Shown: positions 1,919 through 54,340 of the stretch, one piece after another | Position numbering within the stretch: position 1 is the stretch's first letter | Layout: every line of letters starts with the position of its first letter | IMG/VR virus record: IMGVR_UViG_3300012344_000001 | Location: 32,001 to 96,000 of that record | DNA: 64,000 nt | Strand: one strand, 5' to 3' | Source: a virus | Taxonomy: Duplodnaviria > Caudoviricetes | Position numbers and translations under genes: made by a program | Notes under the pieces: generated by a model | The model's database searches: none | Told to the model about the DNA's origin: nothing | What the model saw: only the letters and a program-made list of their open reading frames with translations

Positions 1919-4201
1919 TTAGTCAACAACGGTCGCGACAACCGTGTCGATGAACTGGTAGCCGAACATACCGCCCATGCGGAAATGCTTCTGCGCCAGC
2001 ATCATAAGAGCAGACTTGGTGGTAGCAGTACGGGTCGCAGCAACCTTACCGGTATAAGCGCCGTCAACGGGCTCAATGTAGCTACCAGCAGCGAAAGCGC
2101 CGTCAATAACGTCAGTAGACAGTTCGAAATCAAGACCAGGAACCAGCATGATAGCAGTCACGACCTCGCCAGCCTGATAAACATACTGGGTGTAGTCGGG
2201 CCGACCCTCGGGACGACGACCGTCGGGAAGAGTCTCAAAACCGTCATTGATGATGATAGCCGCACGCAGACCAAGGTCGGCGGTAGCAGGCTGGGAACCA
2301 GTGTAGACCTGATAGTTGTCGGCGATGCTGGAATCAAGCGCCTTCAGCATGACGATATCGCCAGCGTGCAGGGTCTTGCCAGTGGGGACAGAAACCTTCT
2401 TGACAAGGTAATCAGGAACGCGAGGATTAGTCGCGCGGCAAAGATAATTCCGTTGTGTTAGTCAAACTAACTTACTGCTTCATCGAGCTCTTTTTCGCAA
2501 AAGCTACTAAAGTCTTACAGCCCTTCACAGCATAGAGGTGCAACGACACCTTTAGACTGCAATCTTTTAACTTAGATTGCATATCTACTCAGGTTGATAG
2601 CAGCATTGTAATCACGGTCGATTGTAAAGCCACACACTTCACATTCGTACACGCGGTCGCCAAGTTTCAAGCTTTGCTTTATGTTTCCACAGCAAGAACA
2701 AGTCTTACTGCTTGGATAGAAACGGTCAGCTTGAACAAATTCAATCCCGCGCCATTCGCATTTATATCGCATCTGTCTGACAAATTCATGAAAACACTGT
2801 TCCTTAATTGCCACACCCAAATGCTTATTTTTCATCATGTCGACAACATCTAAGTCTTCCATTACCACCCTTGCCGGTAGTTTAGTAACCAAAAAATGCG
2901 TCGCTTGGTGAATATAATTCATGCGAATATTTGAAACGCGTGCATACAACTTACGAAGTTTTGCTTCTTCTTTCATAATATTATTCGTCTTTACAAACTT
3001 GTTCCCAACTCTGTTCTGTTCATATTTGCGCGAAATTGAACGCTGTATACGAACTATTTCCTTCTTCAACTTGCGTATCCGACAAGATTTGTTAATATTA
3101 TGAAATACGATTTGGTCTTCGTTAAATTCTGCCACCGCTAAATCTTTCAATCCAAGGTCTATGCCCATGCTTACATCCGTTAATTTAAGTGCTTGATTTT
3201 CGCACATCATGCCAAAGGACAGCATCCACTTACCATTCTTATTTGATATTCGTGGGTTTGTGAACTTGTGTCCTTTCCCCAAAGGCAATTCAAAGTCTGT
3301 TTTATAACGAACCTTACCAATTTTTTCTATTGAAACTTTCATATCTGAAAACCAGATATTTTCACGAATTGGAAATCTTAGCCCGTTCGACTTTCGACTT
3401 TTGAACTTTGGGTAACCGGATTTTTTATTAAAGAAATTTTGGTATGCTTTATCAAGGTCAAGACATATATAGCTAAGGCTTTTATTAGAAACGTCATATA
3501 ACCAATCGTGCAGACCATCGTTCTTTAATGGTTTAAGTAAGCTTATCATTGAAAATCCAGACAGATATTTCCCGCCATTTTTATACAGTTCTTGCTGGTA
3601 TGCCAACATATAGTTCCAGACGAACCTACAAGCACCCGCATGGCTTAACATCTTCTGTTCTTGTTCTTTTGTTGGGTATAACCTTATCTTATAAGATTTA
3701 ATATACATCGTTATCACCTCCTCTTATTAGTTATAAGAGGAGACGGTGGGAACATACCCCACCATGCTTCTTCTCCTTTATCGGGTCGCTACCCCGTGAC
3801 ACTCCGTTTCGGAGTCTTTGCCTTTCGGCAAAGCGCAGACTATATCTTCATCCTTTCGGATGCCCACCACAGTCTTCGCCAATCGCTTGCGAAGCACTTA
3901 GTCGTTGAACCTTCTGCATTTTGCATTATAGCATATTTTACAACGCTTGTCAATACTTTAGTTGTAAATATTTTATGAACAAAATACAGCTTGGCTGCTG
4001 ATTGCCCATTACGGGAAGCGTTTAGGGTTTAACCTTGCGCCATCCGGTATATTTTTTCTACTTTCGTCGCCATCACGCTTAGGATTTAACCTTACGTTGT
4101 GGCTATACCGGCTTTAGGGGTTTCCAGCAATTCAATGGGTATTTTTATCGAACACATTTCTGTGAACGTGACCTATCGAACACGATGGTTCATTAAGCCA
4201 T
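1919..4201 (-). CDS. capsid-associated (decoration/stabilising-like) protein, spliced: exon1 4201-4196 (ATG GCT), exon2 2449-1919
   Basis: GAAAGGA SD before ATG GCT followed by in-frame TAA; removing 4195-2450 gives in-frame MA|NYLCRATNPRVPDYLVKK... continuous with ORF 1919..2350. Confidence 0.8.
2450..2571 (-). ncRNA. putative TnpB omegaRNA scaffold (3' part), coincident with intron 3' end
   Basis: Non-coding segment after tnpB stop ending ...GATGAAGCAGTAAG...ACAACGG; inferred from known tnpB locus architecture. Confidence 0.55.
2572..3708 (-). CDS. tnpB: RNA-guided endonuclease TnpB (intron-encoded)
   Basis: KSYKIRLYPT N-terminus, RuvC GIDLG / VMEDL / DRDYNAAIN, CSCCG..CEVCG Zn ribbon; all catalytic residues present. 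Confidence 0.95.
   Translation of the reverse strand: MYIKSYKIRLYPTKEQEQKMLSHAGACRFVWNYMLAYQQELYKNGGKYLSGFSMISLLKPLKNDGLHDWLYDVSNKSLSYICLDLDKAYQNFFNKKSGYPKFKSRKSNGLRFPIRENIWFSDMKVSIEKIGKVRYKTDFELPLGKGHKFTNPRISNKNGKWMLSFGMMCENQALKLTDVSMGIDLGLKDLAVAEFNEDQIVFHNINKSCRIRKLKKEIVRIQRSISRKYEQNRVGNKFVKTNNIMKEEAKLRKLYARVSNIRMNYIHQATHFLVTKLPARVVMEDLDVVDMMKNKHLGVAIKEQCFHEFVRQMRYKCEWRGIEFVQADRFYPSSKTCSCCGNIKQSLKLGDRVYECEVCGFTIDRDYNAAINLSRYAI
3925..3953 (-). promoter_or_regulatory. sigmaA consensus promoter inside the intron, upstream of tnpB
   Basis: TTGACA-17 nt-TATAAT with extended TG. Confidence 0.8.
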
Positions 4202-4225
4202 AATAATTCAACATCCTTTCTTTAA

Positions 4226-44263: not shown

Positions 44264-44336
44264 TCGCCCATATCGTAGTCGAAACGATGTCTCCAGATTG
44301 AAGGTCTGGCGGCTTAGACCGCTTGCCTAATGGGCG
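44264..44336 (-). tRNA. tRNA-Glu (TTC)-like, atypical (C33, T-A closing T-stem, no CCA)
   Basis: CGCCCAT/ATGGGCG acceptor, GGC/GCC D-stem, CCAGA-CCTTCAA-TCTGG, ATCGT-TTCGACT-ACGAT; own promoter 44355-44383 and hairpin 44226-44253. Confidence 0.7.
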
Positions 44337-46931: not shown

Positions 46932-48171
46932 TGACATAATCCACCGCCTCTTGGTGTTTGTATTTCTACAATTTCCACATCATTGATTTTGCTTGCACTT
47001 GCGAAGTCTTACAAATCTCCGTGGACATTCAGGACGTACCCCGCCCCAAGATATTGCTTTACGCTAACATCTGTAATCCTTCTTGCAGGATGTTTAACGC
47101 GGCATTTAAGTCGCGCACATGATGCACGCCGCAACAAGGACAATCCCATTCGCGAACAGACAAATCCTTTGTTTTCGGATTCTTCCAACCGCAGAAAGAA
47201 CACAACTGACTTGATGGGAAATATCTATCAACAATATGAAGATTCTTTCCATACCACGCACACTTATATTCTAATTGCCTGCGGATTTCATAGAATGAAA
47301 CTTCCTGTGCCGCCTTTGCGCCAAAATGATTCTTTTTCATTTCAGATACCTTCAAATCTTCTATGCAGATGTCATCATATTTGCGCACAATGTCCGTCGT
47401 CAGCTTGTTGATGTAGTCTTTTCGCTGGTTGGCGACGTGTTCCATAGCCCTTGCAAGTTTAATTCGCGCCTTTTTCCAGTTTTCGCTACCGTTTGTTTTT
47501 CGCGATAGTTCTTTCTGTAGACGTGTAATCTTCTTTTGTGATTGCTTTAGGAACTTAGGATTAGGAACAACTGTTCCATCTGAAAACGTCATTAGATTAT
47601 CTGCTGAATTTAAGTCGATACCGATAGATTTTCCGGTTTTAGGTAGATGTTTTTCGGGGACATCAGTACAACAAACAGATATATAATATTTGTCTGCTGG
47701 TGTTTTAATGACCGTGACAGACAGGATTCTGCCTTCTACTTTTTTGCTGACGCAACATTTCACCATACCTATTTTAAGCAGCTGAACACAGTCATCAAAC
47801 AGGTGAACGCCAGTTCCAAGGACTCGATACGACTGCATTGTCTTTTTTGATTTGAAACGCGGATAGCCAACGCTTTGACCTTTTTTGATTCCACGAAAGA
47901 AATTAGAATAAGCACAATCTAAATCGCGCAATGATTGTTGCAAACCGACGGCGCTAACTTCGCGCAAATATGCAAATTCTTCCGTCTTTTTAAGACTTGT
48001 CAAATCTTTCATGCAGTCAAATCCGCCTATTCGTTTCTTTTCGGTTTCCCATGCAGTTTTGCGCATTTCAAGATAATGGTTATAAACTTTACGACAACAG
48101 CCGAAAGTTCTTTTCATGTGTTCTTTTTGTGCATCATTCGGATAAATGCGGAACTTATATGATTTTTCCGT
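46932..48171 (-). mobile_element. IS200/IS605-type tnpB + omegaRNA, no tnpA and no evident left end
   Basis: tnpB begins 6 nt after the hydrolase stop; non-coding tail ends GGTGGATTATGTCA (IS605-like right end). Confidence 0.7.
47059..48171 (-). CDS. tnpB: TnpB; conserved N-terminus begins at an ACG codon
   Basis: ACG GAA AAA TCA TAT AAG TTC CGC ATT TAT CCG (xEKSYKFRIYP); GIDL, IEDL, RDLNAALNI all intact. Confidence 0.9.
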   Translation of the reverse strand, partial: TEKSYKFRIYPNDAQKEHMKRTFGCCRKVYNHYLEMRKTAWETEKKRIGGFDCMKDLTSLKKTEEFAYLREVSAVGLQQSLRDLDCAYSNFFRGIKKGQSVGYPRFKSKKTMQSYRVLGTGVHLFDDCVQLLKIGMVKCCVSKKVEGRILSVTVIKTPADKYYISVCCTDVPEKHLPKTGKSIGIDLNSADNLMTFSDGTVVPNPKFLKQSQKKITRLQKELSRKTNGSENWKKARIKLARAMEHVANQRKDYINKLTTDIVRKYDDICIEDLKVSEMKKNHFGAKAAQEVSFYEIRRQLEYKCAWYGKNLHIVDRYFPSSQLCSFCGWKNPKTKDLSVREWDCPCCGVHHVRDLNAALNILQEGLQMLA

Positions 48172-53090: not shown

Positions 53091-54340
53091 GTGAACTACA
53101 CACGATGATAAAGCACCGGTGCTTCCTAATCAATATCTCTAACGAGACAAGTTTACTTAGGCTATCCCCGTAGTTCCTACGGTTCTTATTCTCAATCCTT
53201 CATTAAGAATATTTATTGCAGCGTTAATGCCTCTATCGTGAACAGTTCCACATTGCGGACACACCCATTCTCTAACAGACAAATCCTTTATTTCTGTATT
53301 TTTGTATCCGCATTTACTACACAACTGCGAACTTGGATACCACGAATCAATTTTCACAATTTCTCTTCCGTACCAGTTTGCTTTGTATTCCAGTTGTCGT
53401 ACAAATTCTGACCATGATACATCAGCAATAGACTTAGCGAGTTTATGATTTTTCATCATATTCTTAACTTTCAATGTTTCCAGACATATGACTTGGTTTT
53501 CATCAATCAGTCTTTTTGAAAGTTTGTTTAGAAAGTCCTTGCGTTGATTCGTTATTTTCTCGTGACAACGTGCAACTTTAATTCTACATTTCTCTCGATT
53601 TTTACTTCCTTTTTTACAACGAGACAAGTCTTTCTGCAACTTCCGCAGTTTCTTTTCTGATTTTTTCAAGTATTTCGGATTTTCAATCACTTTGCCATCA
53701 GAAGTGGTTGCGAACCCCTTGATTCCCAAATCTATTCCAAGTTCAGAATCACATGGAATTTTCTTTGGAATATCTTCTTGTTCAACAAGAACCGAAACAT
53801 AATATTTTCCCGATGGCGTTCTTGTAATGGTAGCGTGTTTGATTGTTCCAAAAAAATTCCTGTGTTTCTTAATCCTGACAAGTCCAATTTTCGGAAGGTT
53901 AATGTGTCGTTCTGTCACGCGGATATTGGCTTGATTTGTAGTATAAGAATCATATCGCGTTTTCTTACTTTTGAATTTTGGGAACCCAACTTCTGGTCGC
54001 TTGAAGAAGTTGTTGTACGCTGTCCGTAAATTCATCTGAGCATTTGACAACGCTTGCGCATCGACTTCTCGAAGCCATGGAAATTCGTCTTTATATTGGG
54101 CTGGCGTATTTTTCAGGTTTTGTTTTGTCTTATTGTAAAACTCGATTTTATCAGCAAGCATACGATTGTAGATAAATCTGACGCAACCGAAGCATTTTGA
54201 AAAATAAGTTTTCTGTTCTTCATTTGGATACATTCTATATTTGTAGGCAATCAACATATCTACAATCACTTCCTTTCCGATATAGTTCTCTTTCTTTTGC
54301 CGACTATGCTAAAGCATAGCGGATATCTTTGATTTCATGT
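53091..54340 (-). mobile_element. IS200/IS605-type non-autonomous tnpB element
   Basis: right end ...GTGTAGTTCAC at 53091; left-end-like hairpin CTATGCT-TT-AGCATAG at about 54304-54319; left boundary approximate. Confidence 0.7.
53157..54257 (-). CDS. tnpB: TnpB with RuvC-III Asp-to-Gly substitution
   Basis: [18 protein letters not shown], but HDRGINAA instead of HDRDINAA. Confidence 0.9.

Follow-up and report, generated by a model that had tools for sequence, protein, structure and literature searches.

How can a phage gene that is interrupted directly after its second codon give rise to a full-length product, and by what means does the interrupting element spread? These questions are raised by the window analyzed here, a stretch of 64,000 nucleotides that corresponds to bases 32001–96000 of the IMG/VR virus record IMGVR_UViG_3300012344_000001, an uncultured gut phage (107,954 bp with direct terminal repeats, rated complete). 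Coordinates are window positions, and every feature discussed is on the minus strand unless stated otherwise. An earlier note on this DNA had described an IStron-like group I intron that carries TnpB within a phage head gene and had proposed that TnpB acts as an RNA-guided homing endonuclease. We find that the insert between 4195 and 2450 is one IStron, which comprises a ribozyme, a tnpB gene and a guide-RNA scaffold. Judged by its features, it is an IStron, a known kind of element, that fits neither of the two published groups, since its nuclease, guide-RNA family and CGG end are those of group B but its flank is ATGGCT with a U.G pair. The homing proposal fits all the evidence and gains indirect support from the population pattern. 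New here are the invariance of the element in 11 contigs, the clustering of sibling differences at the junction and a perfect promoter match in the P6 loop.

The boundaries of the element are defined by alleles that lack it. Intron-less relatives read ATGGCT|AATTATCTTTGCCGCG across the junction, and the sister contig L003 (106 kb) reads ATGGCT|AATTATCTTTGCCGCGCG, with nothing between the two halves. Precise empty sites are present in 11 contigs, namely L003 and ten from IMG/VR and the metagenome collection. The exon-2 translation matches 66 homologues, the closest of which are all 178 aa long (2 + 176) and begin MANYLCRATNPRVPDYL (MANYLC). The bases at either end of the insert are not those of the neighboring exons, so its ends cannot be shifted, and because the empty alleles and the 178-aa homologues show the join, the boundaries are exact and not just plausible. 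The IStron starts with TAATG, which places an in-frame TAA stop right after the 5´ exon, and ends with ACAACGG, the last base being G2450; its G+C content is 39%, compared with 45–48% in the flanks. The ends of the IStron are the splice sites, and removal of the element restores the host gene exactly. The insertion after codon 2 (empty sites ATGGCT|AATTATC), the two-codon 5´ exon, on which the empty alleles and the MANYLC homologues agree, and the coincidence of the intron's terminal G with an omegaRNA-like end had all been proposed in the earlier note and are borne out. An exact search of IMG/VR for the right end of this element returned no match. The single match to the 5´ junction search, L118, is a chance match without an intron.

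The 5´ part of the IStron is a group I ribozyme whose core is complete, as had been claimed: the Rfam model RF00028 matches positions 4205–3816 over its full length (1–253) with 85 bits (E 3e-20). In the cmscan alignment, the exon UGGCU pairs with the intron GGUCA to form P1, and U4196 lies opposite G4173, which gives the predicted U.G. Relatives at other YGGCT sites carry an identical internal guide sequence. Splicing at U4196|...G2450 would join ATGGCT to AATTAT. Since P1 takes in two start-codon bases (UG), its formation and the binding of ribosomes may be in competition. The P10 helix that had been put forward, GAUAG paired with UUAUC of exon 2, does not hold: it re-uses G4173, which is paired with the splice-site U, and begins 2 nt into exon 2, and is thus out of register. 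The canonical register yields approximately three pairs and L025 has none, so P10 is not conserved.

The 3´ part of the intron contains a tnpB gene of the IS200/IS605/IS607 type. The open reading frame (ORF) starts 108 nt past P9 and is intact, in agreement with the earlier note; its 378-aa product has the Pfam domains HTH_OrfB_IS605, OrfB_IS605 and Cas12f1-like_TNB. The closest solved structure is that of ISFba1 TnpB (8IAZ; E 1e-70). The RuvC triad D184, E284 and D364 aligns with D194, E290 and D371 of ISFba1, and the zinc finger (CxxC...CxxC) is formed by C337, C340, C356 and C359. From these features, TnpB is predicted to cleave DNA in an RNA-guided manner that depends on a target-adjacent motif (TAM), the short motif that TnpB needs beside its target. 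A tnpA gene is absent, as had been noted. Just 108 nt separate P9 and tnpB, too few to accommodate a transposase gene in the element, and the 108-kb genome as a whole has no resolvase or Y1 (Y1_Tnp) transposase domain. Between P9 and tnpB, AGGAGG, the Shine-Dalgarno sequence of tnpB, is paired with CUCCUC in the hairpin at 3718–3742 (inverted repeat I13; 10 nt, 100% complementary). A Shine-Dalgarno hairpin upstream of tnpB is retained with changed letters (CTCCCTTA...GAAGGGAG) in L019, L022 and L025, which suggests translational control of TnpB.

The guide-RNA (omegaRNA/reRNA) scaffold forms the 3´ end of the element and overlaps the 3´ splice site. It is composed of stem-loops over the tnpB 3´ end, a RAGATH-18 core (2531–2472), a terminal hairpin (2471–2457) and ACAACGG. 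The RAGATH-18 match scores 46.3 bits, just above the cut-off of 44.9; homologous loci score 54–61 bits, and the scaffold end ...AACACAACGG is identical or near-identical in ~30 related loci. TnpB nucleases of the IS607 family are guided by RNAs derived from RAGATH-18 (PMC11061315). By analogy with the IS607 TnpB literature (PMC11061315; bioRxiv 10.1101/2023.11.20.567912), the start of exon 2, which lies right beyond the scaffold as stated in the earlier note, would be used as the guide. The 16-nt guide sequence occurs once in the window and is perfectly matched in 10 intron-less alleles. A stem-loop in the guide-RNA region, GGUGUCGUUGCACC (2536–2547), is complementary at 11 of 12 positions to the conserved P7-region strand GGUUCAACGAC (3901–3912); guide RNA and ribozyme might pair here in an alternative way, or the match may be coincidental.

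The sequence on the other side of the junction is conserved among related elements. Their 5´ splice sites were located by a U paired to G in the P1 helix together with an open frame across the exon join, a procedure that is clear for the YGGCT group and ambiguous for L040, L044, L045, L047, L058 and L059, which are not relied upon. YGGCT is found at six independent IStron sites: ATGGCT (window), TTGGCT (L025/L041), GTGGCT (L036), GCGGCT (L039), ACGGCT (L056) and ATGGCT (L060). Two of these, the window site and the L041 site, are validated by empty alleles; for the L036-type insertion, a search returned no empty allele. At the L041 site, six empty alleles read ACCTTGGCT|ACGACCCTG (TTGGCT|ACGACCCTG), three of which sit in phages that have an IStron at another site. 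The contigs L209, L212 and L213, which also hold L039, L036 and L046, have an IStron at one site and an empty TAM-bearing copy of another. Each IStron copy seems to be tied to its own site by its guide. L060 keeps GGCT despite an internal guide sequence with GGCC instead of AGGUC. More distant members have the flanks GGAT, GGTT, GGAAT and GGAGT, which are assigned less certainly. Two of the base-reading TAM residues known from ISFba1 (PMC11061315) are altered (K83 to S79 and N121 to E116) and N61/N62 are deleted, which fits a TAM other than AGGAG. The YGGCT flank is a good candidate for the TAM.

The relatives also indicate what moves. Related TnpBs at 60–72% identity reside in phage genes other than this one, and all of them are accompanied by a group I intron upstream and by a RAGATH-18 RNA; an intron lies upstream of tnpB in 47 of the 80 IMG/VR TnpB loci that were fetched with a profile of this clade. 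L034, L036, L039 and L041 are 91–94% identical over the whole element except for the first 10–30 bases (P1) and occupy at least three different sites. The mobile unit is thus the whole IStron, which rules out a recent insertion of an IS607 element into a resident intron. In bacterial assemblies, the nearest relatives are 59–63% identical and lie in contigs of Clostridia and of Oscillospiraceae metagenome-assembled genomes. L034 and L041 share the 5´ exon and the splice site (…CCTTGGCT|) and differ in the right flank (TCCAGTC… and ACGACCC…), which a deletion, or a rearrangement involving two IStron copies, may explain. Two TnpB loci of the clade are located on single contigs in IMGVR_UViG_3300037249_000367 (L042 and L052, both IStrons, at different sites) and IMGVR_UViG_3300045988_149468 (L081 and L111).

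A sigma-70-type promoter, with TTGACA and TATAAT separated by 17 nt on the tnpB strand, is predicted in the loop of P6, and the scan tool's flag for a TG before the −10 hexamer is set. It lies in a 72–74-nt P6 insert that is missing from related intron cores in public runs. In 25 of 54 related IStron loci (L034–L149), the stretch from the intron start to tnpB contains sense-strand promoter-like sites (at least 10 of 12 positions), with 0.12 expected per locus; these sites occupy different loops in different lineages. The sites of relatives are ~190 nt upstream of tnpB in the L025 type and 57–59 nt upstream (some 12/12) in L068–L072, L083 and L103. A transcript from the predicted start near 3918 would lack P1–P6; it would therefore be unable to splice and would contain tnpB, scaffold and guide in one piece. 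By keyword, no mention of an internal promoter was found in two experimental IStron papers.

The distribution of the element among phages bears on how it spreads. The exact TnpB protein is found in at least 24 contigs, every time at this site, and its 90% cluster holds one sequence only in the entire collection. In pairwise comparisons of 11 contigs that carry the IStron and stem from different samples, the 1,746-nt element is invariant; the flanks of the same contigs diverge by a mean of 1.07% upstream and 2.84% downstream, with a maximum of ~4.6%. L114 is the same phage without the element, with 99.73% identity over 10,480 bases to the IStron-removed window and no gaps; 7 of its 28 differences fall between −240 and +9 of the junction. 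Compared with the IStron-bearing contig L010 (2,742 bases), L114 differs only at −42, −28, 0 and +9, plus the last base of the contig. Position 0 is the end of the candidate TAM and the splice-site U, and +9 is position 9 of the guide; both changes in L114 are synonymous T>C (GCT to GCC and CTT to CTC). The L114 bases at −69, −42 or −28 recur in other IStron-bearing contigs, and those at 0 and +9 never do. A second intron-less haplotype, in contigs of the runs X2, X3 and X5 from another study, has C at position 0 too. Near-identical intron-less siblings thus all carry a synonymous C at 0, and one also carries one at guide position 9. This is the pattern expected from homing with short, variable co-conversion tracts and resistant empty alleles, which it suggests. 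The runs X2, X3 and X5 are of unknown type and hold the intron-less GCC allele as contigs, and therefore provide no evidence on splicing.

We favor, with moderate confidence, a mechanism that combines a splicing intron, homing by an RNA-guided TnpB and a guide transcript from the internal promoter. When the late capsid operon is transcribed, P1 would pair the exon UGGCU with the internal guide sequence, and the intron would be removed at U4196|...G2450, which joins ATG GCT to AAT TAT and restores the 178-aa capsid-accessory protein. Unspliced RNA would supply the TnpB mRNA and the guide RNA, most plausibly as a separate transcript from the P6-loop promoter that lacks P1–P6. The guide RNA would have a scaffold that ends with ACAACGG and, as its guide, the first ~16 nt of exon 2. 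During co-infection with an intron-less relative, the TnpB–RNA complex would recognize YGGCT followed by AATTATCTTTGCCGCG, which is present only in the empty allele; the occupied allele would be safe because ACAACGG replaces the TAM. TnpB would cut the empty allele, which would then be repaired with the IStron-bearing genome as template and so acquire the element. Such transfer by repair would amount to homing with short co-conversion tracts.

Several observations weigh against this mechanism or leave room for others. The 11 contigs without a difference in the element were collected on the basis of exact TnpB identity, a choice that biases the coding part and leaves 609 non-coding bases and the synonymous sites free to vary. 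The TAM and the P1 requirement are inseparable by comparison, as both constrain the same bases. The sole RNA run, X1, has related intron cores and no sequence that spans the exon junction, and is uninformative on splicing. Ten empty contigs (L003, L115–L117 and L119–L124) have TGGCT and a perfect target of at least 17 nt, which reaches at least 30 nt in nine of them; six of the ten are, by BLAST, 84–89% identical to the window across the region. That these targetable contigs are empty means either that homing is not sweeping across lineages or that the phages never meet. The C-at-0 alleles could be ancestral instead of escape variants, and one recent insertion with ordinary recombination and an ancestral C could give the same pattern. 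In line with this, the element could be a passive passenger, an intron that splices and whose TnpB no longer drives spread, with a single recent insertion moved by homologous recombination between co-infecting phages. The perfect-looking targets that stay empty in distant intron-less lineages (84–89% where measured) speak for it, and monomorphy with mosaic flanks requires just a young insertion and recombination. However, tnpB is intact, with its catalytic and zinc residues all there and no variant within 90% identity in the collection, and related elements occur at many sites, always behind GGNT-like flanks. The closest empty sibling differs only within 52 nt around the site, with changes in both the TAM end and the guide target, a clustering at the junction that neutral recombination does not predict. 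We regard a passenger as unlikely.

TnpB could alternatively be a weapon in competition, which cuts the capsid-accessory gene of intron-less competitors and lowers their yield, with transfer as a by-product. The target sits in a structural gene of close relatives, a host-type promoter could permit early expression, and a precedent exists in the intron endonuclease of phage PhiPA3 (PMC11620839). Nothing here distinguishes killing from conversion, however, and since the element is found with several flank haplotypes, transfer or recombination does take place; this explanation appears improbable. Far less credible, and rejected, is the alternative raised in the earlier note, in which a TnpB-only IS607 element entered an older intron without an ORF at a GG (3776–3775) and is guided to TnpB-less copies of that intron. 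The sequence AAAGG|AG at 3779–3773 does contain AGGAG, the TAM of ISFba1-type TnpBs (PMC11061315), and the element ends with CGG as IS607 elements do. However, exon 2, not intron, lies after the scaffold, and relatives that are 64–67% identical share the entire architecture of core, P9 hairpins, Shine-Dalgarno hairpin, tnpB, scaffold and CGG. Whole IStrons 91–94% identical sit at different sites with the intron ends as their ends, which argues against an insertion at this GG and makes any fusion of intron and IS607 element old. Of the two kinds of allele that the earlier note expected in related phages, intron-less ones exist in 11 contigs, but a TnpB-less intron at this site was not found in the searches made. 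An equally slim chance is given to the absence of splicing, in which case the gene would be split and a shorter protein would start at Met 2350, from where gene callers report a 143-aa ORF. Against this, the ribozyme core is complete, at least 24 contigs have the element precisely where its removal restores the frame, and the first 35 residues, which would be lost, are strongly conserved in all full-length homologues; because of this conservation, a product from Met 2350 would probably not work.

If the favored mechanism of splicing and homing is right, the locus may be read more broadly, and only tentatively, as RNA-guided intron homing in nature. The element would then represent a third, phage-adapted type of IStron, which uses the nuclease and guide RNA of IS607 elements at a canonical U.G site after a GGCT TAM, without a transposase, and sweeps unchanged over diverged backgrounds. 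The only surviving intron-less siblings would be escape alleles, altered synonymously at the TAM end and within the guide seed, and the host-type promoter in a ribozyme loop would resolve the known conflict of splicing with guide-RNA production through a separate transcript unable to splice. To our knowledge, no natural case of IStron intron homing is documented. That IStron copies without TnpA could spread by intron homing was suggested in a 2026 review (PMC13565253). At this locus, the donor and the empty alleles are defined, and two naturally occurring alleles, set apart by one or two synonymous bases, are candidates for resistance. Three things thereby become testable: the homing role of an RNA-guided TnpB for a phage intron, its TAM, and escape by natural variants. 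Given this element, the published A/B division of IStrons is incomplete. The internal promoter points to an unreported way to separate guide-RNA production from splicing, and the TnpB clade may have a new, GGCT-like TAM of interest for compact genome editors.

The interrupted gene lies in the order portal, YonD-like, interrupted gene, YonB-like (Table 1); the Yon/Yom (SPbeta-type) names derive from Pfam matches precomputed on sister contigs. The AlphaFold model of the predicted 178-aa spliced product has a mean pLDDT of 81. Foldseek matches in the PDB are weak (best E 3e-3; TM 0.45–0.58) and give a hint only; all are to capsid-stabilizing or cement proteins (TW1, FCWL1, T1, Pam3 and HFTV1) or to herpesvirus triplex proteins. 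Together with the gene position, these matches suggest that the product is probably a capsid cement or decoration protein. A dependence of virion assembly on splicing, as the conserved 35 N-terminal residues would imply, is plausible. The nearest cultured relatives by the host gene are the Thomasclavelia phages TR-TP1 and TR-TP2 (46% identity). Elsewhere in the window are a tRNA gene at 44264–44336 (Rfam tRNA, 57 bits) and two further intact tnpB genes at 47059–48117 and 53157–54269, which encode 352 and 370 aa, have three Pfam domains each and share 30–32% identity with the IStron TnpB; no group I intron or RAGATH-18 RNA is detectable adjoining them.

Table 1. Features of the IStron locus and its neighboring genes (window positions).
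Feature	Position	Strand	Basis
Whole IStron, 1,746 nt	4195..2450	-	Exact empty sites in L003, L114 and others
5´ exon, ATG GCT (Met-Ala)	4201-4196	-	Sequence; empty-site alleles; homologues start MA-NYLC
Exon 2, 176 codons + stop	1919..2449	-	178-aa homologues; gene position
Group I ribozyme core, P1 to P9	3816..4195	-	Rfam RF00028
Internal guide sequence UAGGUCA, P1 3´ strand	4169..4175	-	cmscan alignment
Predicted sigma-70-type promoter in P6 loop insertion	3925..3953	-	12/12 match
Peripheral hairpins after P9	3709..3815	-	Inverted repeat I13 for hairpin 3718-3742
tnpB, 378 aa, IS607 type	2572..3708	-	Pfam; PHROG 506; structure 8IAZ
Guide-RNA (omegaRNA/reRNA) scaffold	2450..2590	-	Rfam RF03064; fold; doubles as 3´ splice site
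Putative 16-nt guide AATTATCTTTGCCGCG	2434..2449	-	Position directly after scaffold; first exon-2 bases
Candidate TAM TGGCT, also P1 exon strand	4200-4196	-	YGGCT flank at six sites
Portal	8407-6788	-	PHROG 2739
YonD-like protein, 614 aa	6070-4226	-	Pfam matches precomputed on sister contigs
YonB-like protein, 373 aa	1896-775	-	Pfam matches precomputed on sister contigs

Two groups of IStrons have been described. Group A (IS605) has TTGAT-like flanks and a TCAG end, and group B (IS607) has GG-ending flanks, G as the last exon base and a CGG end (PMC4227781; PMC13565253). Examples of group B are BcISt1, CboIStron and CbISt3/CbISt4 of the Clostridium botulinum phages c-st and D-1873 (PMC4227781; bioRxiv 10.1101/2023.11.20.567912); phage c-st gives a weak DNA match to the element. 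As in group B, a 5´ group I intron is followed by tnpB and a scaffold in the 3´ part, the intron ends are the element ends, there is no target duplication, and an IS607-type TnpB, a RAGATH-18 RNA and a CGG end are present. Unlike group B, which uses AGGG, TGGG or GAGG sites with G as the last exon base, the element lies behind YGGCT with a canonical U.G; the serine-recombinase tnpA of group B or a remnant of it is not found, and the long (15–34 bp) AU-rich stem around the ORF is absent among 20 inverted repeats. The TAM of CboTnpB is TGGG, compared with the candidate (Y)GGCT here. Group A, represented by CdISt1 and the CdiIStrons of Clostridioides difficile, resembles the element in having U as the last exon base in a paired P1, in a 5´ flank that is both TAM and P1 strand, and in that most copies are without a working tnpA. 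In contrast to the T-rich pentanucleotide flanks (TTGAT, ATTAT or TTTAT) and TCAG end of group A, the flank is TGGCT and the end ACGG, and neither an IS605-type TnpB and guide RNA nor Y1 (HUH) tnpA fragments are present. ISFba1 and other IS607 TnpBs (PMC11061315; 8IAZ) share the domain order, the RuvC triad, the zinc finger and the guide-RNA family; they belong to plain insertion sequences without an intron, with AGGAG or GAGGG as the TAM, unlike the element here.

The closest functional parallel is to phage homing introns. An essential phage gene is interrupted, the nuclease ORF lies peripherally in the intron, the 5´ splice site is closely followed by an in-frame stop, the target is found only in the intron-less allele, and the tracts at the junction resemble short co-conversion tracts. 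In T4 introns, the nuclease gene has an intron-internal promoter, a further likeness to the promoter predicted here. The features listed before it are shared with T4 td/I-TevI and with PhiPA3 gp210 (PMC11620839). In contrast to the T4 and PhiPA3 nucleases, TnpB is predicted to be guided by RNA, and its specificity would come from the intron's 3´ end and exon 2 instead of protein–DNA contacts.

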